A stretch of DNA of 64,000 nt from Chloroflexota bacterium (GCA_031400455.1 JANNPX010000029.1:464-64463); one strand, 5' to 3'; numbered from the stretch's first letter, positions 1 to 63,609 are shown. Translations and numbers: made by a program. The notes: generated by a model not told the origin, from the sequence alone.

Positions 1-49
1 CTTTAGTGGACGGGTTTTTTGATACCCGGCGGCGGCCGAAGCAGGAAGA

Positions 50-64
50 GGCACATGATGTGCC
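50..64. promoter_or_regulatory. Perfect 7-bp inverted repeat GGCACAT-G-ATGTGCC upstream of ilvB, covering the tandem ATG ATG at 55-60
   Basis: Read directly: ggcacatgatgtgcc is its own reverse complement around a central g. It lies about 270 nt upstream of the ilvB start. Confidence 0.4.
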
Positions 65-222
65 GAAAACAGGGAATGATGAACAAGCAGATCGCTTCTC
101 CGGAGGGTACCCCGGTCTCGGCGTCCAGCCAGTTGGCACGCCGTGACCGCGATGTAGTACGCCTCTTGTCCGGGGTATCCGGCGAGCAGAACACGCTCGC
201 GCTACTCGGACTCCTCCTTTAG
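55..222 (+). CDS. Candidate leader peptide (56 aa) ending LALLGLLL-stop, upstream of ilvB
   Basis: ATG at 55 is preceded by AGGAAGAGG. The frame ends ...NTLALLGLLL then TAG at 220-222 (6 Leu in the last 8 codons), 110 nt before the ilvB start. This follows the pattern of ilv/leu attenuation leaders. Confidence 0.25.
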   Translation: MMCRKQGMMNKQIASPEGTPVSASSQLARRDRDVVRLLSGVSGEQNTLALLGLLL

Positions 223-331
223 TCGTCCTCGCGCCGCACGCGGATTGCAGGGGACGATGCCCACCAGGGTGGGAACACCAACGACAACGACGGATGCCGC
301 ATCGTGCGGACGAGTCGCAGGAGAAGCAGCA

Positions 332-2062
332 ATGACAAAGATCAAGGGCGCAGAGATCATCATGGAGTGCCTCCGCAAGGAGGGGGTCGAGATCATCTTC
401 GGCTACCCCGGCGGCGCCAACCTCCCGATGTACGACGCGCTGAAGAAGTACCCCGACATCAAGCACGTGCTCGTGCGCCACGAGCAGGCGGCGGCGCATG
501 CCGCCGACGCGTACGCGCGCGTCTCCGGCAAGGCAGGCGTCTGCTGGGCGACGTCCGGCCCCGGCGCGACGAACCTCGTCACGGGCATCGCCAACGCGTG
601 GATGGATTCCGTGCCGCTGGTGTGCATCACAGGCCAGGTCGTCTCGTGGCTGCTCGGCCGCGATGGATTCCAGGAAGCGGACATCACCGGCATCACGATC
701 CCGATCGTCAAGCACAACGTGCTCGTGCTGGACGTCGAGGACATCGCGCCTGCTATCGCCGAGGCGTTCCACATCGCAACGACGGGGCGGCCGGGGCCGG
801 TGCTGGTCGATATCCCGCGCGACGTGCAGCAAGCGCTGTGCGAGTTCAACTATCCGGAGAAGGTGAGCCTGCCGGGCTATCAGCCGACGGTGATGGGGCA
901 TCCGGGTCAGGTGAAGAAGGCGGCGCAGCTCATCGCCGAGTCGGAGAAGCCGCTGATCCTCGCGGGGCACGGCGTCGTCATCGCTCGCGCGGCGGAGGAG
1001 CTGACGGAGCTGGCGGAGAAGGCGCAGATCCCCGTGATCACGACGCTGCTCGGACTGGGCGGCATGGCGGGATCGCACGAGCTGAACATGGGGATGCCGG
1101 GCATGCACGGCATGTATTGGAACAACATGGGCATCCAGGAAGCTGATCTCGTCATCGGTATCGGCATGCGCTTCGATGACCGCGTGACGGGTGCGCTGAA
1201 GGACTTCGCGCCGAACGCGAAGATCATCCACATCGACATCGACCCGGCGGAGATCGGCAAGAACGTCAAGACGATGGTGCCGATCGTCGGCGACGTGAAG
1301 GCGGTGCTGAAGCAGCTGCTGCCGCAGGTCGAGCCGATGCGACACGATGCGTGGCGCGCGTGGTTCGCCGACATGCGGGCGAAGCACCCGTCGATCGCGA
1401 TCCCGGAGAGCGATAAGATCCTGCCGCAGTACGTGATCAAGAAGATCTACGAAATGTCCGGCCCGAAGGCGTACTACGCGACGGGCGTCGGGCAGCATCA
1501 GATGTGGGCGGCGCAGTACTTCTGGGGCGACAACCCGTACTCGTTCGTGACGTCGGGTGGCCTCGGAACGATGGGGTTCGAGGTGCCGGCGGCGATCGGC
1601 GTGCAGTTCGCGCGGCCGCACGACACCGTGTGGGCGTTCTGCGGCGACGGTGGCTTCCAGATGACGATGCAGGAGCTGTCGCTCTGCGCGGAGTACGAAC
1701 TGCCGATCAAGTTCGCCATCATCAACAACCACTATCTGGGCATGGTGCGGCAGTGGCAGGACACGTTCTACGACGGCAACAAGCAGTCGGTGCGGATGTT
1801 CCAGCCGGACTTCGTGAAGCTGGCTGAGGCGATGGGTGTCACCGGCATCCGCGTCACCGAGAAGTCGATGGTGGAGTCGTCGATCGAGGCGGCGCTGCGG
1901 CACCCGGGCGCCGTGTTGCTCGACTTCGAGGTCGAGGAGGCGGAGGACTGCTATCCGATGATGCCGCCCGGCGTCAGCCTGTCGGACACCATCGACCAGC
2001 CGAAGATCGAGACGCGGCCGCGCGAGACCACGCGCGAGCCCGCCGGCGGGAGGGCGCGATGA
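332..2062 (+). CDS. ilvB: Acetolactate synthase large subunit (TPP-dependent)
   Basis: Translation [37 protein letters not shown]... has the GDG and TPP-binding regions typical of the AHAS large subunit. AGGAGA lies 8 nt before the ATG at 332. The 245 start in the ORF track is an upstream TTG extension. Confidence 0.9.
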
Positions 2063-2634
2063 GCGGCAGACTGCACACGATCGTCGCACTGGTGGAGAAC
2101 CGGCCCGGCGTGCTCAACAAGATCGCCAACAAGTGGCGCCAGCGCGCGTTCAACATCGAGAGCCTGACCGTCGGGCCGAGCGAACTGCCGGGGCTGTCGC
2201 GCATGACATTCACGGTGGACGGCATCGCGCACGACATCGAGCAGGTGACGAAGCAGCTCTACAAAGTGATCGAGGTGGTGAAGATCACCGACGTCACGGA
2301 GGAACGCATCGTCGCACGGGAACTCGCGCTCGTGAAGGTTGCGACGACGAAGGACAACCGCGGCGCCGTGATCGAAGTGGTCAACATGTTCCGCGCGAAC
2401 ATCGTGGATGTCGCGGTCGACTCGCTGGTCATCGAAGTGACCGGCGCGGAAGAGAAGATCGACGCGATGATCGCGATGCTGACACCGTTCGGGCTGAAGG
2501 AGTTGGTGCGGACGGGCCGCGTGGCGATGACGCGCGGGGCACAGCCGCCGACGCCGTCCCTCGAGACGAACGGCGTGTATCACAAGTACCGGTCGGCCGG
2601 CGAAGGCAAGCCGAAGGTGGGGAGCCTGATCTAG
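2059..2634 (+). CDS. ilvN: Acetolactate synthase small (regulatory) subunit
   Basis: ACT-domain protein [44 protein letters not shown] overlap with the ilvB stop. Confidence 0.9.
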
Positions 2635-2732
2635 AGGTTGGAAGTTGGAGGTCTGAGCCTCTGACGGGAATCGGACGGGGCCATCAGTCAGTCGGCGCGA
2701 GCGCCTATCAACGAGACAGGAACAACAACGCA

Positions 2733-3731
2733 ATGCCACAGATGTACTACGACAAGGACGCGGATCTTTCGCTGCTCAAGGGGAAGACGATCGGCGTGAT
2801 CGGGTTCGGCAGCCAGGGGCATGCCCACGCGCTGAACCTCAAGGACAGCGGCTGCAACGTCATCGTCGGCCTCTACCCCGGCTCGAAGTCGTGGGCGAAG
2901 GTCGAAGAGGCGGGGCTGCGCGTCGGCAATGTGCGCGAGGTCGCCGAAGAGGCGGACATCATCATGATCCTTGCGCCCGACCAGGTCGCGAAGGACGTGT
3001 ACTACAGCCATATCGCCGACGGCTTGAAGCCGGGCAACATGGTGATGTGGGCGCACGGGTTCAACGTGCACTTCGACCAGGTGCAGACGCCGGACGATAT
3101 CGACGTGACGATGGTCGCGCCGAAGGGGCCGGGGCACCTCGTACGCCGCGTGTACGCCGAGGGCGGCGGCGTGCCGGCGCTCTTCGCCGTACACCAGAAC
3201 GCTACGGAGTCGGCGCGGCAGATCGCGCTGGCATACGCGAAGGGCATCGGCGCGACGCGCGCCGGCGTGCTGGAGACGACGTTCAAAGAAGAGACCGAGA
3301 CGGACCTCTTCGGCGAGCAGGCCGTTCTCTGCGGCGGTACGACGGCGCTCGTAAAGGCGGCGTTCGAGACGCTGTGCGAGGCGGGGTACCAGCCGGAACT
3401 GGCGTACTTCGAGTGCATGCACGAGCTGAAGCTGATCGTCGACCTGATGTACGAGGGCGGCATGGAGTACATGCGCTACTCGATCAGCGACACGGCCGAG
3501 TACGGCGATTACTCTCGCGGGCCGGTAGTGATCGATGCGCACGTCAAAGAGAACATGAAGCGCGTGCTGGGCCAGATCCAGGACGGGACCTTCGCGAAGG
3601 AATGGATCCTCGAGAACCAGGCTGGGCGCCCGAGCTTCAACGCGCTGCGGCGGATCAACGCCTCGCACCAGATCGAAGAAGTGGGCGCGGAGTTGCGCGG
3701 CATGATGCAGTGGTTGAAGAAGAGCCGCTGA
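2733..3731 (+). CDS. ilvC: Ketol-acid reductoisomerase
   Basis: [40 protein letters not shown]... is the classic KARI N-terminus. The ATG at 2733 is in frame with the long ORF 2133..3731. Confidence 0.9.
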
Positions 3732-3748
3732 CATAACGGATTGACGTA

Positions 3749-3814
3749 ATGATGAACGAGTTCACGATGACTACGATGCTCGGCCTCACACTTCAACAGC
3801 CCTCGTCCGCCTGA
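3749..3814 (+). CDS. Candidate short uORF / leader peptide MMNEFTMTTMLGLTLQQPSSA between ilvC and leuA
   Basis: ATGATG begins 18 nt after the ilvC stop. The 21 codons include MLGLTL. A TTGACG -35-like hexamer sits at 3741-3746. Confidence 0.2.
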   Translation: MMNEFTMTTMLGLTLQQPSSA

Positions 3815-3858
3815 GCGGATCGGAGGGCACGGAGTTGGGCGCCGCGCGCCGCGCCGAA

Positions 3859-3874
3859 TGTTTCACGTGAAACA
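3859..3874. promoter_or_regulatory. Perfect 16-bp palindrome TGTTTCACGTGAAACA immediately upstream of the leuA SD/start
   Basis: Read directly. Followed by the GGAGG SD at 3882-3886 and the leuA ATG at 3895. Likely an operator for a dimeric regulator. Confidence 0.45.
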
Positions 3875-3894
3875 ATGCAACGGAGGACATCGTC

Positions 3895-5442
3895 ATGGAC
3901 AAGGTCATCATTTTCGATACGACACTGCGCGACGGCGAGCAGTCGCCGGGCGTCGCGCTGACGGCAGAAGACAAGATGCAGATCGCGCGCCAGCTCGAGC
4001 GGCTGGGCGTGGACATCATCGAGGCGGGCTTCCCGCGCACGTCGCCGGGCGACTTCGAAGCGGTGCAGGCGATCGCGCGCGAGATCAAGGGCGCGCAGAT
4101 CGCAGGGCTCGCGCACGCAAACCCCGAGGCCGTCGATGCGTGCTGGGATGCGGTGAAGGGCGGTGTTCAGCCGCGCATCCACGTCTTTCTGTCGACGAGC
4201 GACATCCACATCATGCACCAGCTGGCGAAAGACAAGGAGACCGTGCTCGAGATGGCGCGGACGATGGTGGCACGCGCCGCGGGCTACTGCAGCGACGTCG
4301 AATTTAGCCCGATGGACGCGACACGTAGCGACCGCAAGTTCGTCTACTGGATGCTGGAGCAGTGCATCGAAGCAGGCGCGACGACGGTGAACATTCCGGA
4401 CACGGTGGGCTACGCCATCCCGGAGGAGTTCGCGGGGTTTATCAAGGACATCTACGAGAACGTGCCGAACATCCACAAGGCTCGCATCTCCGTGCACTGC
4501 CACAACGACCTGGGTCTGGCGGTAGCCAACTCGCTGGCGGCAGTCTCGGTAGGCGCGCGGCAGATCGAGACGTGCATCAACGGCATCGGCGAGCGGGCGG
4601 GGAATGCGGCGCTCGAAGAAGTCGTGATGGCGATCAAGACGCGGCGCGACTTTATGAACGTCGAGACGAACATCAAGACGCAGGAGCTCTACCGGACGAG
4701 CCGCATGGTCGCGGATCTCACGGGCATGAGCATGCAGTGGAACAAGGCAATCGTCGGCGCGAACGCGTTCCGCCACCAGTCCGGCATTCACCAGGACGGC
4801 GTGCTGAAGATGCGCGAGACGTACGAGATCATGGACGCGAAGGAGATCGGCTGGCCGTCCGGCGGCGCGGAGATCGTGCTGGGCAAGGTATCCGGGCGCC
4901 ACGGGTTCAAGTCGCGGCTGGAAGAGCTGGGGTACGACCTCACCGAGGAAGAGCTGTCGCGCGCCTTCATGGCGTTCAAGGAACTGGCGGACAAGAAGGC
5001 GGAGATCGACGACCGCGACCTCGAGGCGATCGTCGCCGACAAGCTGCGTACCCAGACCGAGATCTACCACCTCGACTTCGTGCAGGTGTCGTGCGGCGAC
5101 CACGCCACGCCGACGGCGACGGTACGCCTGATCGCGCCTGACGGGACGGTACGGGCTGACGCCGCGCTCGGTACGGGGCCGGTCGACGCGGTGTATCGCG
5201 CGATCAACCGCATCGTCGATGTCGAGAACGAGCTGACGGAGTTCCACGTCAAGAGCGTCACCGAAGGCATCGACGCGCAGGGTGAAGTGACGATTCGCAT
5301 CGAGGGCGGCGGACGCAGCTATCTGGGCCGCGGTGCGGACACGGACGTGATCGTGGCTTCGGCCAAGGCGTACATGAACGCGCTCAACCGCATGCTGGCG
5401 TTGGACCGGCGGCAGAATTCCGAAATGGCGACGAAGCCGTAG
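3895..5442 (+). CDS. leuA: 2-isopropylmalate synthase
   Basis: [27 protein letters not shown]... with the HxH metal site ([16 protein letters not shown]) and the C-terminal LeuA regulatory domain. Confidence 0.92.
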
Positions 5443-5533
5443 CGACCAAGGGCCACGGCCTGAGGTAAAGGGCGTTGCTCGAAGCCTTGACAGAGACTTA
5501 GTGAACTTGGTAACCTCCGATTTGGGAGGTGCC

Positions 5534-5947
5534 ATGGCCACACGACGAAAGAAAGTCACATATGCAGTTGGCGGAGAGGCGGCCACCGGGGCTCTGCAAG
5601 ACGCGGCCATAGCCTGGCGGGTGGATGCGGAGGAAGACGCTGATGCCGGACGCGGGGCTACGCGGCTCAGCGGAAAGAATCAAATTACGCTGCCGGTGGC
5701 GATGCTACGAACGCTGGGGTGGCGAGCCGGAGACGAGGTGGACCTTATGATAGACGGGGAAGAGATACGGCTGCGGCGGCGGCTGCAAGGCAAGCCGCTC
5801 CTGGACAGGCTGGAAGGCGCCCTCAGTCATGTGCCTGAGTGGCAGACCAAAGAGGGCATACATACCTGGGTGCGCCAGGAGCGCGGCAGTTGGGATCGTG
5901 AGTGGGATTCAGAACCGAAGCCTTCGAGGAGCGGGTCGGCGGACTGA
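5534..5947 (+). CDS. vapB: AbrB/MazE/SpoVT-type antitoxin (VapB-like)
   Basis: The ITLPVAMLRTLGWRAGDEVDLMIDGEEIRLRR swapped-hairpin motif. GGGAGG SD before the ATG at 5534. Directly precedes a PIN-domain gene. Confidence 0.65.
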   Translation: MATRRKKVTYAVGGEAATGALQDAAIAWRVDAEEDADAGRGATRLSGKNQITLPVAMLRTLGWRAGDEVDLMIDGEEIRLRRRLQGKPLLDRLEGALSHVPEWQTKEGIHTWVRQERGSWDREWDSEPKPSRSGSAD

Positions 5948-6447
5948 GGCACATCAGCCTTGATTCGTGCGCGTGCATCTACCTCCTCACTCGGACGGAG
6001 CCGTTCACGGCACCGATACGGAGCTTGTTCGAGCGGGCGGATGCCCGCAGGCTCGCGATCTCGCTGTCGCGTTTGGTGCAGATGGAGTTGTTGGTGCATC
6101 CAATGCGCAGCCGCGATCCGCGAGAGCGCGAGATCATCGTCGATCTCACTGAGCGTGCGGGCGGCGTGCAGACGACCGAGCTGACGCGGACCGTGCTGTT
6201 CCTTGCGGCGGAGATTCGTGCGCACACCCGGCTCAAGACACCCGATGCGATCGTCGTGGCTTCGGCCGCGGCGAACGGTTGCGAAGCGATCATCGGAAAC
6301 GACAAGCGATTTCGGGACCTCGATTCGCTGGCGGGCACGCGGTTGTTGGCGAGTTCCCGGCCCGTAACGTTGCCCGAATACGTGCACCTCGATGACTACG
6401 ATGAAGAACTGAGACGACCAGCACTGACCAGGCGGGGACCGAAATGA
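5902..6447 (+). CDS. vapC: PIN-domain toxin (VapC-like ribonuclease)
   Basis: ...[12 protein letters not shown]... and ...[23 protein letters not shown]... carry conserved PIN acidic residues. The stop TGA overlaps the leuC ATG (ATGA). The annotated GTG start overlaps the vapB 3' end by 46 nt, so the true start may be further downstream. Confidence 0.65.
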
Positions 6448-7850
6448 CGAAGACACTGTCCGAGAAGATCTGGGATGCACACCTTGTGCGGCACGAGGAG
6501 GGGAAGCCCGACCTGCTGTACATCGATCTGCATCTGGTGCACGAAGTGACGTCGGCGCAGGCGTTCGAGGGGTTGCGGCTGGCCGGGCGGAAAGTTCGGC
6601 GGCCCGATCTGACGCTGGCGACGGTGGACCACAACGTCCCGACGCGCGACCGCGACAAGCCGTGGGCAGATCCGCTTTCGACGAAGCAGGTCGAGACGAT
6701 CGCTACGAACGCCGAGGAGTTCGGCGTGCCGTACTTCGGCGTGAACGACCGGCGGCAGGGGATCGTGCACATCATCGGGCCGGAGCAGGGGCTGACGCAG
6801 CCAGGGATGACGATCGTCTGCGGCGATAGCCATACGTCGACGCACGGCGCGTTCGGATCGCTGGCGTTCGGCATCGGCACGTCGGAAGTCGAACATGTGC
6901 TGGCGACGCAGACTCTGGCTCAGGCGACGCCGAAGACGATGTCCGTAGAAGTGAATGGCACGCTGCATGACGGCGTTACGTCGAAGGACGTGATTCTCGC
7001 AATCATTCGCAAGATCGGCGTGGCAGGCGGCGTCGGGCACGTGATCGAGTATCGCGGGGACGTGATCCGGTCGTTCTCGATGGAAGGCCGCATGACGGTC
7101 TGCAACATGTCGATCGAAGGCGGCGCCCGTGCGGGCTTGGTTGCGCCGGACGACACGACGTTCGCGTACGTCGAGGGGCGGCCGTTCGCGCCGAAGGGCG
7201 CCGACTGGGAGCGCGCGCTCGACGGCTGGCGCACGCTGCCGACCGACGAGGGCGCGGCGTTCGACGTGAACATCGAGCTTAAGGGCGAAGACATCGAGCC
7301 GTGCGTGACGTGGGGCACAACGCCCGCGCAGAGTGTGCCGGTGACGGGCCGCATCCCCGATCCGAACAGCTTCTCCGACGAGCGAGTGCGCGAACTGGCG
7401 GAGCGTTCGCTGACGTATATGGACCTCAAGCCGGGCACGGCGATCGAGGACATCACGCTGGACCGCGTGTTTCTCGGGTCGTGCACGAACGGGCGGATCG
7501 AGGATCTTCGCGCGGCGGCTGAAGTCGTGCGCGGGCAGAAGGTTTCGGACCACGTGTACGCGATGGTGGTACCGGGCTCCGGGCTGGTGAAGGCGCAGGC
7601 GGAGCAGGAGGGGCTGGACGCGATCTTCAAGGACGCGGGCTTCGACTGGCGCGACGCCGGCTGCTCGATGTGCCTGGGGATGAACCCCGACATCCTGCTG
7701 CCGGGCGAGCGCTGCGCTTCGACCTCGAACCGCAACTTCGAGGGGCGGCAGGGGCCGGGCGGGCGCACGCACCTCGTCAGTCCGCAGATGGCGGCCGCGG
7801 CGGCGATCGCCGGGCACTTCGTCGATATCCGATCGTGGAGGCGAAACTGA
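6444..7850 (+). CDS. leuC: 3-isopropylmalate dehydratase large subunit
   Basis: [15 protein letters not shown]... with the aconitase-family Cys ligands (SCTNGR, GCSMCLG). Confidence 0.92.
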
Positions 7851-8446
7851 TGGAGCCGTTCAAGAAGGTTCGTGGCAAGATCCTGCCGCTTCCGCGCGCC
7901 GATGTCGACACCGACCAGATCATTCCAGCGAAGTACCTCAAGCGCATCGAGCGTACTGGCTTCGGCGAGTTCGCGTTCGACGCGTGGCGCAAGGACCCGG
8001 ATTTCGTGCTGAACGATGATCGCTACGACGGCGCGGAAGTGCTGGTGACGGGCCCGAACTTCGGCTGCGGGTCGTCGCGCGAGCATGCGCCCTGGGCGCT
8101 GCAGCAGATGGGGCTCAAGGCGATCGTTGCGCCGTCGTTCGCGGACATCTTCCGCAACAACTGCGCGAAGATCGGACTGCTCACCGTCGAGCTGCCGCAG
8201 GACAGCATCGACCGGCTGATCGCCCGCGCGGAGGACTCGCCTGGCTACGAGATGGAGGTCGACCTGGAGACGCAGACCGTGAGCCTCGGCAACGGCAAGT
8301 CGCGCCACTTCGATGTCGACCCCTTCGTGAAGCACTGCCTGCTCAACGGCCTCGACGAGATCGGGCTGACGTTGCAGGAGGGCGACGCAATCGACGCGTT
8401 CGAGTCGAAGCGGTCGGAGCTGCTACCGTCGACGGCGGGGGCGTAG
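7850..8446 (+). CDS. leuD: 3-isopropylmalate dehydratase small subunit
   Basis: [33 protein letters not shown]... ATGA overlap with the leuC stop. Confidence 0.9.
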   Translation: MEPFKKVRGKILPLPRADVDTDQIIPAKYLKRIERTGFGEFAFDAWRKDPDFVLNDDRYDGAEVLVTGPNFGCGSSREHAPWALQQMGLKAIVAPSFADIFRNNCAKIGLLTVELPQDSIDRLIARAEDSPGYEMEVDLETQTVSLGNGKSRHFDVDPFVKHCLLNGLDEIGLTLQEGDAIDAFESKRSELLPSTAGA

Positions 8447-8668
8447 CGCACTTCGTTTAGGAAGGCGCACGCAGACGGGATATCGCGACTCGATACTCTA
8501 TGATTGGCGGCGCAAACACAGGTTCATGGTGATGATGATGTTTGCATCTGCCGCGCCAAAGTCATGCCAAGGGAGCGTCGGCATGGCTGTCAGTGCCAAA
8601 GCCGTGGGCGTCGTCGCCGAGTGTGATATCGGGTTTTTCGGTGCACAGCCCGGTATCAGGGGCTGCTG

Positions 8669-8989
8669 ATGCGTTTCGTCGCAGCCCTGCTCCTAGTCAT
8701 CACGACGACCGGCTGGATCATGGTTGCTGGTCAGGCTGGATTGTTTGTCGTCCCCGGGCTCGTATCCGCCGAATACACTTTGGGCGCCGGCATCGCATTC
8801 ACAATCATCTACGTAATAGCTCCGGTCGTACTGGCAATAGGGTGGAGCCTACTCGTGCAACGGCGCCTGCCGACAGCCAAGCAGGCGGAGATGGCTGTGA
8901 TAGTGGTGGTCGCCCTTCTCGGCCTGGTGGTCTTGGCCCTTCCTGTCGGTCTGGGGCTCAATTGGCTTGTTGAGAATACTGCGCTCTGA
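8669..8989 (+). CDS. Small hydrophobic membrane protein (about 3 TM), hypothetical
   Basis: 106 aa, almost entirely hydrophobic helices. AGGGG before the ATG. Lies in a lower-GC patch 8.46-9.0 kb. Confidence 0.4.
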   Translation: MRFVAALLLVITTTGWIMVAGQAGLFVVPGLVSAEYTLGAGIAFTIIYVIAPVVLAIGWSLLVQRRLPTAKQAEMAVIVVVALLGLVVLALPVGLGLNWLVENTAL

Positions 8990-9059
8990 GACTCGACTTG
9001 AAATAGACGCCCCGATTGAAGCATGTCGTTGACGGCGTCGGAGCGCGCTCTCAATCCGA

Positions 9060-9108
9060 GTCGTCGTCACACAACGAGGGGAGGGCCGCATTGCTGCGAC
9101 CCTCCCTC
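9060..9108 (-). terminator. Candidate intrinsic terminator of htrA
   Basis: 11-bp stem with one mismatch (gggagggccgc / gcgaccctccc) and loop attgct at 9076-9108. On the minus strand it is followed by GUUGUGUG. Confidence 0.3.
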
Positions 9109-9210
9109 TACTCCGCGTTCCGCACCGCCACCCGCCACACCATCCGCGGAGTTTCCGGCTATCCCGTCGTATCTCGGCTCATCTGTTCGTCTCGGTGTTT
9201 GAGCGCGGGA

Positions 9211-10335
9211 TCACGCTGAGGAGTCCCAGGACTTCAGGGTGGCGGTTACTTCTGTATCTTCGCCGTCCCGGTGGATGGTGATGATCACCTTGTCGCCGAC
9301 GGCTTTGGTGTCGATGTAGTCGGCGAGATCGTCGAAGGTCTTCGTCGTGTTGCCGTCGAGGGCGACGATGACGTCGCCGGTGCCGTCGGTAGCGCCGCGG
9401 ATGCCGGCCTGGCCCGCGCCGCTGCCGCTATCGACGGACGCGACGGCGACGCCGTGCTCGATGCCGAGCGTCCTGAGTTCCGCGGGCGTCAGCGTCTTGC
9501 CGGAGATGCCGAGGCGGGCGTGGGTGATCGTCTCGCCGCCGGTGAGCTGCGTGAGGTAGCGCTTCGGCGTGTTGATCGGCACGGCGTACCCGACGCCGGC
9601 GAACGAGTCGGCGCCGCTTGGATTCTCGATGGCGGTGTTGATGCCGATGACTTCGCCCTGCATGTTGATCAGCGCGCCGCCGGAGTTGCCGGGGTTGATG
9701 GCGGCGTCGGCCTGCAGCAAGCCGCGCAGTGGCCGTCCGTTGGCGCTCGACGTGAGCGTGCGGTCGAGGCCGCTGATGACGCCGGTCGTGAAGGTGCCTT
9801 CCAGGCCGAACGGGTTGCCGATGGCGGCGATGACGGAACCGACCTTCACGAGGCTGGAGTCGCCGAGCGTGGCGGGTTGGAGCAGGCTCGCGTCCGCGTC
9901 GGTCTTGACGACGGCGGTATCGTCACCGGGATCCTTGCCGATGACATCGGCGCTGGCGGTGCTGCCGTCCGAGAAGGTGATGGTGACGGTGTCGAAGCCG
10001 TTGACGACGTGGTAGTTCGTCAGGATGTGGCCTTCCTTGTCGAGCACGATGCCGGAGCCGAGGCCGCCGCCCTGACCGCGGACGGTAGAGCCGGCGGCGC
10101 TGCCGGTCGTGATGAGCACGATGGAGGGGCGAACCTTGTCGTAGAGCGCAGTAAAGTCGTCGTTGGACGTTAGCGGCGCGCCCGGCGATCCGCTGGTGTT
10201 CACCTGGCCGGAGGTGGTGGCCGGCGCGACGGTTGCGCTGTTCGTGCTGCCGCCGTCGTCGCGGGCCCAGACGACGCCGCCGACGATGGCGGCGCCGGCG
10301 AGTACGCCGAGCAGTCCTGTCGTGAATGATTTCAT
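9211..10335 (-). CDS. htrA: HtrA/DegP-family trypsin-like serine protease with PDZ domain, secreted
   Basis: Signal/TM N-terminus, catalytic triad contexts HILTNYHV, DTAVVK and GNSGGAL, and a C-terminal PDZ domain. Confidence 0.85.
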   Translation of the reverse strand: MKSFTTGLLGVLAGAAIVGGVVWARDDGGSTNSATVAPATTSGQVNTSGSPGAPLTSNDDFTALYDKVRPSIVLITTGSAAGSTVRGQGGGLGSGIVLDKEGHILTNYHVVNGFDTVTITFSDGSTASADVIGKDPGDDTAVVKTDADASLLQPATLGDSSLVKVGSVIAAIGNPFGLEGTFTTGVISGLDRTLTSSANGRPLRGLLQADAAINPGNSGGALINMQGEVIGINTAIENPSGADSFAGVGYAVPINTPKRYLTQLTGGETITHARLGISGKTLTPAELRTLGIEHGVAVASVDSGSGAGQAGIRGATDGTGDVIVALDGNTTKTFDDLADYIDTKAVGDKVIITIHRDGEDTEVTATLKSWDSSA

Positions 10336-10353
10336 TTACGGTCTCCGTTAGCG

Positions 10354-10383
10354 GTCAGCTAGTCAGCCTGTCAGCTAGTCAGC
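10354..10383. repeat. Tandem direct repeat GTCAGCTAGTCAGC x2 (2-nt spacer) 19-48 nt upstream of the htrA start
   Basis: Read directly: gtcagctagtcagc ct gtcagctagtcagc. Confidence 0.6.
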
Positions 10384-10504
10384 GGGTCGGTCCGTTTGCC
10401 GGCCGTCGCTGCAGTGCTCACTCAGTATGTCGGTTCGGTCGAGGTGATCGTGCTTCAAACATGTTACGCGGCGCGGCGGCGTGGGGATTCCGGCGCAGAA
10501 AGTG

Positions 10505-23541: not shown

Positions 23542-25224
<1,683 letters not shown>

Positions 25225-63376: not shown

Positions 63377-63450
<74 letters not shown>

Positions 63451-63520
63451 GTTATTCCGCGGGCCGCTTGAATACGAATCCGCCCGGCGGAACTCGGGCG
63501 GACGCGGTCGAATCTGCATG

Positions 63521-63609
63521 TGGTGCCGAGGAGGAGATTTGAACTCCTACACCCTTGCGGGCACGGCCCCCTCAAGACCGCGTGTCTGCCTATTCCACCA
63601 CCTCGGCGC
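63521..63609 (-). tRNA. tRNA-Leu (anticodon GAG), long variable arm
   Basis: Reverse complement GCGCCGAGGTGGTGGAATAGGCAGACACGCGGTCTTGAGGGGGCCGTGCCCGCAAGGGTGTAGGAGTTCAAATCTCCTCCTCGGCACCA. Anticodon stem CGGTC/GGCCG, loop TTGAGGG. Class II tRNA, closely matching the layout of E. coli tRNA-Leu. Confidence 0.8.

Follow-up and report, generated by a model that had tools for sequence, protein, structure and literature searches.

Why would a gene pair of the toxin–antitoxin (TA) kind stand inside the operon for leucine biosynthesis? The question arises from a 64,000-nucleotide stretch of DNA from a Chloroflexota bacterium (GCA_031400455.1 JANNPX010000029.1:464-64463; hereafter the window, with positions counted from its first letter), in which a vapB-like gene and a gene for a PIN-domain (VapC-like) protein separate leuA from leuC at positions 5534-6447 of the + strand. 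On the evidence of their sequences, the two genes are best read as a VapBC-type (type II toxin-antitoxin-like) pair. With a little more confidence than doubt, we propose that this VapBC was captured once and has been kept as an autoregulated vapB-PIN-leuCD unit, whose PIN protein would be an endonuclease acting on translation RNA and freed when VapB is depleted.

Gene calls across the window give the + strand order ilvB-ilvN-ilvC-leuA-vapB-like-PIN-leuC-leuD. A preliminary description of the locus had placed an AbrB/MazE-fold antitoxin gene and a PIN toxin gene between leuA and leuC, and the Pfam scores and gene calls agree with it. The PIN gene (5902-6447, + strand) encodes 181 amino acids and matches Pfam PF01850 at 61.2 bits against a cut-off of 23.6. 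The acidic tetrad, on which the same description had made the toxin assignment depend, is invariant: D21, E62, D115 and D134 are present in all 32 sequences of two alignments (19 close and 13 distant homologues), and N133 is likewise invariant in the 19-homologue alignment. The AlphaFold2 model of the protein has a predicted local distance difference test (pLDDT) score of 88 and a predicted template modelling score of 0.82. Of its best 40 PDB matches in Foldseek, at 13-20% identity, roughly two in three are VapC toxins in VapBC complexes, including Rickettsia felis VapBC2 on promoter DNA, Shigella/Salmonella VapC and Mycobacterium tuberculosis VapC11/15/20; the remainder are PIN-domain proteins of archaea, apart from one PIN protein associated with Cas9. 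Template modelling (TM) scores normalised to the target range from 0.60 to 0.77 over these 40 matches and from 0.70 to 0.77 for the top VapC matches. Pfam score, alignment and model together support assignment of the PIN protein to the VapC family, with a nuclease site predicted to be intact. VapCs are site-specific tRNA or rRNA nucleases (PMC5175351, PMC6265470).

The protein is longer than the 120-147 amino acids of its PDB matches, and two elements lie beyond a minimal VapC: an N-terminal helix (residues 5-12), which is encoded within the overlap with vapB, and a C-terminal strand with the motif P-x-Y-[VI]-H-L-D-D-Y (P-x-Y-V-H-L-D-D-Y in the window), which marks the entire subfamily. The final 10 residues are disordered, variable and Arg-rich, and coincide with the leuC ribosome-binding site. 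The idea that the gene serves as a leucine-codon sensor was considered separately and rejected: leucine makes up 9-13% of PIN residues as against 6-7% in the leu enzymes, and rare-codon use is not conserved across loci. The window PIN gene contains 7 TTG codons.

The upstream partner, the vapB-like gene (5534-5947, + strand, 137 amino acids), matches the MazE_antitoxin/SpoVT-AbrB family (Pfam PF04014) at 28.8 bits against a cut-off of 24.7, and its distant homologues reach 36-38 bits on the same model. The protein consists of a variable, disordered N-terminus (residues 1-35), an AbrB/SpoVT domain (approximately 39-82) and two C-terminal helices, placed at 87-96 and 106-124 by the AlphaFold2 model and ending, in the alignment, in an invariant ERDSWDREWD; helices and motif form a candidate toxin-binding region. 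Across 26 VapB homologues the loop L-S-x-K-N-Q-I-T-L-P in the AbrB-type core is also invariant. One lineage differs at the antitoxin N-terminus: in place of the variable segment it has a C4 zinc finger of the ClpX type joined to the AbrB domain (L001:7507-8046, also L002:967-1506 and P0040; Pfam PF06689 at 58.5 bits, cut-off 27), a feature that may connect the antitoxin directly with recognition or degradation by ClpX.

The best structural matches to the PIN model are the VapBC modules of Shigella flexneri/Salmonella (MvpAT; PDB 3tnd, 6ifc) and R. felis VapBC2 (3zvk), at E 2e-6 and target TM of 0.70-0.76. In these modules, as here, the PIN toxin gene lies downstream of the antitoxin gene, and their VapCs share the four acidic residues with our PIN protein at a sequence identity of 14-16%. 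The VapB antitoxins of Shigella/Salmonella and of R. felis VapBC2 are AbrB-type. The 3zvk structure shows VapBC bound to its own promoter DNA, a behaviour that we infer below for four sequence boxes ahead of vapB. The differences lie in size and setting: the PIN protein, with its N- and C-terminal extensions, has 181 amino acids as compared with about 132 in the Shigella/Salmonella/R. felis VapC; the VapB studied here, unlike theirs, carries a variable N-terminal extension of about 40 amino acids before its DNA-binding domain; and those modules are plasmid-borne or accessory two-gene operons, whereas the present pair is fixed in a biosynthetic operon and feeds directly into leuCD. By sequence, modelled fold, active site and architecture the pair is VapBC, and it departs from the usual description of TA modules as mobile, patchily distributed accessory elements.

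That departure is best seen in the relatives of the pair. A PIN protein search of 5.8 billion proteins returned 20 matches, 18 of them at 39-88% identity. When HMMER was run exhaustively against 1.84 billion cluster representatives, 7 matched at E ≤ 1e-30 and 139 at the looser threshold of E ≤ 1e-10; the C-terminal extension of the subfamily is present in about 50 cluster representatives (160-185 amino acids). Wherever a distinct context could be read (14 of 14, window included; PIN identity 39-86%), the arrangement is leuA-vapB-PIN-leuC. The pair occupies the leuA-leuC gap in loci whose PIN protein is 69-86% identical to that of the window (L001/L002, L003, L004, L085, L168 and L173/L174), 46-47% identical (L086 and L175), 41% identical (L172) and 39% identical (L165-167, L169-171 and L176/177), and also in the P0017 contig (JGI 3300045391), where the context comes from the gene table only. 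Generic PIN genes (at most 36% identity) had leu neighbours in 0 of 78 metagenome loci. Two loci outside leu operons (L097/L098) seemed at first to hold relatives with an extended C-terminus; inspection of L098 showed an ordinary 162-amino-acid VapC with no leu neighbours.

In the nearest outgroup Dehalococcoidia/Chloroflexota metagenome-assembled genomes (MAGs) among the matches listed (LeuC 67-73% and LeuA 62-70% identical), leuA abuts leuC with gaps of 11-210 nucleotides, and no PIN gene, AbrB gene or spacer promoter motif was found between the two. Because all readable members sit in the leuA-leuC gap and the outgroups lack the pair, the insert appears to be a derived, clade-wide character. 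The possibility that it is specific to one strain, which the preliminary description had left to a synteny comparison, can be set aside; its remark that a TA pair is unusual in a core biosynthetic operon holds, and clade-wide inheritance makes the case more unusual than was claimed. The host clade is a group of uncultured Chloroflexota, probably within the Dehalococcoidia; one member of the subfamily is listed at NCBI under a Dehalococcoidia MAG, with the label VapC-family toxin. The mobile or patchy distribution typical of type II TA modules was not found for this pair: tblastn against plasmids recovered generic PINs alone, at 26-31% identity, and against phages no relatives of the PIN protein, and we therefore rejected a mobile origin. 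A full-text literature search found no description of a TA pair within a leu operon.

Several measures bear on how the pair has been transmitted. Identity within the clade is 80-94% for LeuA and LeuC and falls to 35-50% for PIN and VapB. LeuA distances correlate with those of both PIN (Mantel r=0.86, p=0.004) and VapB (r=0.84, p=0.001). Downstream synteny is also common to the clade, in the form of an HtrA-like protease and an acyl-CoA dehydrogenase; the trypsin-PDZ (HtrA-like) protease gene lies downstream of leuD in L001, L003, L169, L173 and L176, which are all of the loci long enough to include it. At the equivalent position the window holds a 374-amino-acid open reading frame (ORF) on the - strand (9211-10335). 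Ratios of nonsynonymous to synonymous substitution (dN/dS, Nei-Gojobori method, with the overlap of the two genes excluded) are 0.08-0.25 for PIN and 0.17-0.35 for vapB, as compared with 0.02-0.09 for leuA, leuC and leuD; PIN and vapB are both under purifying selection. The best reading of these comparisons is that the pair was captured once in an ancestor of the clade and has since been passed on by vertical descent, as a fixed part of the leu operon.

We next consider how the pair may be expressed. The leuA gene (2-isopropylmalate synthase; 3895-5442, + strand; NCBIfam NF002086 at 781 bits, Pfam HMGL-like and LeuA_dimer) is separated from vapB by a spacer of 64-152 nucleotides that is poorly conserved, with a mean column identity of 47%. 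All 13 loci compared have in common a gCTTGAC, N18 (17 in three loci) and TAnnnT, with TGG before the TAnnnT in 10 of them; the -35 box varies to CTTTAC in 3 loci and CTTGAA in 1, and the pattern is retained down to 39% PIN identity. In the window the corresponding elements are TTGACA (5487-5492) and an extended -10, TGgTAACCT (5508-5516, hexamer TAACCT at 5511-5516), and the entire 64-kb window contains a single copy of the composite promoter motif, where chance would give 0.10. We interpret this as a predicted promoter, in which the spacer before vapB would hold a conserved sigma-70-like -35 and extended -10. A Shine-Dalgarno sequence for vapB, GGGAGG (5524-5529), lies 4 nucleotides before the ATG at 5534. 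Since no terminator was found after leuA, read-through from upstream is also expected.

The same elements form part of a symmetric array of four boxes with a 20-bp period, the right half of which corresponds to the -35 and -10. On the + strand of the window, box 1 (CCAAG, 5446-5450), a putative operator half-site found in 7 core-clade loci, starts 4 nucleotides past the leuA stop; box 2 (TAAAG, 5466-5470; CCAAG or TCAAG in relatives) is an inverted copy of the -35 box; box 3 (CTTGA, 5486-5492), conserved in the 13 loci, contains the -35 TTGACA; and box 4 (CTTGG) runs together with the extended -10 (5506-5516). The boxes fall at +6, +26, +46 and +66 past the leuA stop in 5 core loci, and L004 and L168 have an identical 20-bp period at a shifted offset. 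In L165 a left half-site GTAAAGC stands opposite a GCTTTAC -35. The DNA-binding loop of VapB is invariant across the lineages with the box array, and we consider the four boxes likely to be the operator for a VapB-VapC repressor complex. The two-box pattern CTTGR-N15-CTTGG has one other occurrence in the window, at 23579, where 0.29 would be expected by chance.

An inverted repeat, ACCTCC (5513-5518) and GGAGGT (5525-5530), would pair the -10 region with the vapB Shine-Dalgarno sequence in a hairpin over 5500-5545 of the window (-21.2 kcal/mol, z=-3.7; z from -1.9 to +0.2 in relatives). A conserved RNA hairpin over the vapB ribosome-binding site was nonetheless rejected, as the structure is window-specific and RNAalifold gave no consensus pairs. 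The hairpin would form only in leuA read-through transcripts, and not in those from the internal promoter.

Two gene junctions follow. The PIN gene and vapB share a dual-coding overlap of 46 nucleotides on the + strand (5902-5947), from the GTG at 5902 to the vapB stop at 5945-5947, as had been described earlier. This GTG is the first possible PIN start, because an in-frame TGA directly precedes it (5899-5901); it falls within the part of vapB that encodes the invariant R-E-W (cgt GAG TGG), and a tGGGAt 6 nucleotides upstream provides its Shine-Dalgarno sequence. The context tgggaTCGtga before the GTG is kept in 10 of 13 loci. The VapB motif S-W-D-R-E-W-D and the PIN translation signals (GGGA and GTG) therefore share bases (window 5887-5907), and conservation of the motif is in part a dual constraint, since protein function and translation signals coincide there. 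All 13 loci have the overlap. Its length is 46 nucleotides in 7 core loci, to which L172 would be added as the eighth if its TTG is the start, and 19-52 nucleotides in distant loci, and varies with the VapB tail past the motif.

At the downstream junction an ATGA at 6444-6447 (+ strand) joins the PIN stop to the start of leuC (6444-7850, + strand; NCBIfam leuC equivalog 786-799 bits, Pfam Aconitase), which bears out the overlap previously noted; leuD follows (7850-8446, + strand; Pfam Aconitase_C). The stronger claim, that leuCD translation depends on ribosomes reading through vapC, stood only in part. In 10 of 12 lineages the distance between PIN stop and leuC start is -8 to +5 nucleotides, a spacing that favours coupling, but the gap is wider in the other two, leuC possesses a Shine-Dalgarno sequence of its own, and a hairpin sequestering the leuC ribosome-binding site at this junction was rejected, the predicted fold being weaker than shuffled sequences (z=+1.06). 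Strict translational dependence of leuC on PIN is plausible on these spacings. For transcription, leuCD need not rely solely on leuA read-through, because the module carries its own conserved promoter-like element.

Put together, these features suggest the following mechanism. Two sources would supply leuCD mRNA: read-through from ilvBNC-leuA and a vapB-PIN-leuC-leuD transcript that starts at the internal promoter. Canonical VapBC complexes repress their own promoter, and here the VapB-PIN complex would bind the four CCAAG/CTTGG boxes over the -35 and -10 and repress the internal promoter. Depletion of VapB, for example by proteolysis or by slowed translation in amino-acid shortage, would derepress the promoter and yield more leuCD, while free PIN, as a Mg2+-dependent endoribonuclease, would cut translation RNA such as a tRNA and so slow growth.

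A number of observations weigh against this account, and it should be read with them in mind. On the antitoxin side, VapB scores 22.7 bits on NCBIfam TIGR01439, under the cut-off of 28.3; its AlphaFold2 model is poor overall (pLDDT 60, with 70-83 over residues 40-110); and a fold search with the VapB monomer model gave no significant match. Support for the AbrB fold of the VapB-like protein is therefore real but modest. A generic promoter scan called nothing in the leuA-vapB spacer, which we attribute to the weak match of the -10 (TAACCT) to TATAAT, and the PIN-leuC gap is 26-30 nucleotides in two lineages (L170 and L176), so that coupling is not universal. The PIN protein of the P0017 contig may be truncated: in the gene table it is called as a 122-amino-acid fragment that begins 147 nucleotides past vapB, lacks the N-terminal 60 residues (D21 included) and overlaps leuC, and this means either that the toxin is decaying in that lineage or that the gene was mis-called, as in L172, where an apparently truncated PIN proved to have a full, intact ORF. 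The LeuC genome matches listed cover outgroups (at most 73% identity), and retention within the clade is judged from loci that carry the pair. Finally, synonymous divergence (dS) is 0.8-1.9 in the TA genes as against 0.45-0.77 in the leu genes, and GC content at third codon positions (GC3) is 0.67-0.82 as against 0.81-0.91 in every lineage compared (window, L001, L003, L170, L172, L173 and L176), even though the two sets of genes have long shared the locus. We read the higher dS and lower GC3 as weaker codon bias in the TA genes; some allele exchange could also contribute.

That weaker codon bias, together with the higher dN/dS of the TA genes relative to their neighbours, is in keeping with an alternative scenario in which the pair is a selfish, addictive VapBC cassette that became locked in: it replaced the coupling of leuA to leuC, its deletion now harms leuCD expression, and it has no further function for the host. 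Since leuA tightly abuts leuC in the outgroups among the matches listed, the insert replaced that junction, and the leuC ribosome-binding site now lies within the PIN 3′ end while the predicted promoter precedes vapB. Locking in would, however, preserve the DNA, the promoter and the reading frame rather than the nuclease site, and toxin-null mutations should be neutral or beneficial; instead, the acidic tetrad and the C-terminal motif of VapB are invariant across lineages that are 30-40% identical, and dN/dS of both genes is far under 1. Addiction cannot maintain a toxin active site in a non-mobile, vertically inherited locus, and so the invariant site argues for value to the host; the survival of all four catalytic residues across about 60% sequence divergence at such a locus suggests that the nuclease activity itself is useful. 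We accordingly regard a purely selfish origin of this persistence as unlikely, although it fares best among the alternatives to capture of a VapBC that still functions as such.

It is also possible to suppose that the pair is not a TA system at all. In that case the AbrB-type protein would be a dedicated transcription factor of the leu operon and the PIN protein a non-toxic RNA-processing enzyme that, for example, trims or cleaves the polycistronic ilv-leu mRNA and thereby sets the LeuA:LeuCD stoichiometry. The exclusive association of the subfamily with the leuA-leuC locus (14/14 contexts, with about 50 representatives carrying the C-terminal extension) would be natural under such an arrangement, as would the lack of mobile relatives in the plasmid and phage tblastn searches and the extra length of both proteins, the 181-residue PIN and the 40-residue N-terminal extension of VapB not being seen in the matched PDB VapB/VapC chains. 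Gene order, overlap, the DNA-binding domain with its C-terminal helices and the VapC-like fold are nevertheless those of a canonical TA module, and a known leu leader or RNA element on which the PIN protein might act was not found with Rfam. No T-box, leader or attenuator of the leu/ilv type matched in the operon's non-coding regions; an E-value search of positions 1-8600 gave two chance-level matches (E ~0.25), and at gathering thresholds the sole match was a tRNA 57 kb from the operon. We consider this explanation somewhat more doubtful than that of a locked-in cassette.

A further possibility builds on the favoured reading of a captured, autoregulated VapBC and gives it a specific role as a leucine-starvation circuit, in which VapB turnover would set leuCD transcription from the four-box promoter and the PIN protein would cut a tRNA-Leu isoacceptor or the ilv-leu mRNA. 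When TM is normalised to the query, M. tuberculosis VapBC11 (PDB 6a7v) scores higher against the PIN model than any other top match (0.60; 0.77 when normalised to the target), and VapC11 is a tRNase that cuts tRNA-Leu(CAG) (PMC6265470, PMC5175351), which demonstrates that a VapC can be specific for leucine tRNA. Its target cannot be carried over to our PIN protein, because the two are only 18% identical, and neither PMC6265470 nor PMC5175351 mentions a leu-operon location for vapBC11. We give the circuit little credence at present. Were it true, a former TA module would have become a feedback regulator of leucine biosynthesis in a lineage with no recognisable leader, attenuator or T-box for its leu operon. 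Least probable is an anti-phage abortive-infection module that resides in the leu operon by chance: phage defence is reported for many type II TA systems (PMC10440598), but neither protein matched a PADLOC-DB defence family at E ≤ 0.01, the pair is not in a defence island, and defence genes turn over rapidly, in contrast to a pair that is inherited strictly vertically at a single housekeeping locus.

Two further TA systems offer points of comparison for a VapBC pair tied to metabolism. NtrPR of Sinorhizobium meliloti consists of an AbrB-type antitoxin and a PIN toxin and has been proposed to have a metabolic-regulatory role, as its loss alters expression of metabolic and nitrogen-fixation genes; it is, however, a stand-alone two-gene operon, neither embedded in nor co-translated with a biosynthetic operon, unlike the pair described here. 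In Escherichia coli, the chromosomal mazEF pair immediately follows relA, a core starvation-response gene, and is in part transcribed together with it. Its antitoxin has the AbrB/MazE fold, as here, while its toxin is MazF and not a PIN protein; moreover, the TA pair ends the unit and is not upstream of essential biosynthetic genes, and conservation of the relA-mazEF arrangement is narrow.

Some additional observations concern the wider neighbourhood. The ilvC gene is missing between ilvN and leuA in L003 (5240-5985) and in L169/L170 (5588-6342), and L176 has an extra 132-amino-acid ORF between ilvC and leuA (3421-3819), with no Pfam match and an N-terminus that resembles a lipoprotein signal peptide. 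Just upstream of ilvB, L001 encodes a 319-amino-acid PIN_12 (PF16289) protein (552-1511), a second and unrelated PIN gene. In L170 the LeuC protein (8930-10393) is called at 487 amino acids and is 72% identical to that of the window, with LeuA 88% identical; this discrepancy reflects either a mis-called start or a different leuC history. At the far end of the window, 57 kb from the operon, genes for tRNA-Cys(GCA) and tRNA-Leu(GAG) lie side by side on the - strand (63377-63607), of which Rfam at gathering thresholds gave only tRNA-Cys(GCA) and not tRNA-Leu(GAG).

What purpose chromosomal TA modules serve is an old question, in part because the majority are mobile and redundant and do not persist for long. 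In the present case one VapBC subfamily seems to have been confined to a single housekeeping position while its proteins diverged to less than 40% identity, and the pair appears to supply a predicted promoter and the translational context for two essential genes of leucine biosynthesis. The locus therefore offers a natural setting for direct tests of selection on a TA pair and of the connection between such a pair and a defined metabolic pathway, and it illustrates how a core operon can come to incorporate a selfish cassette.

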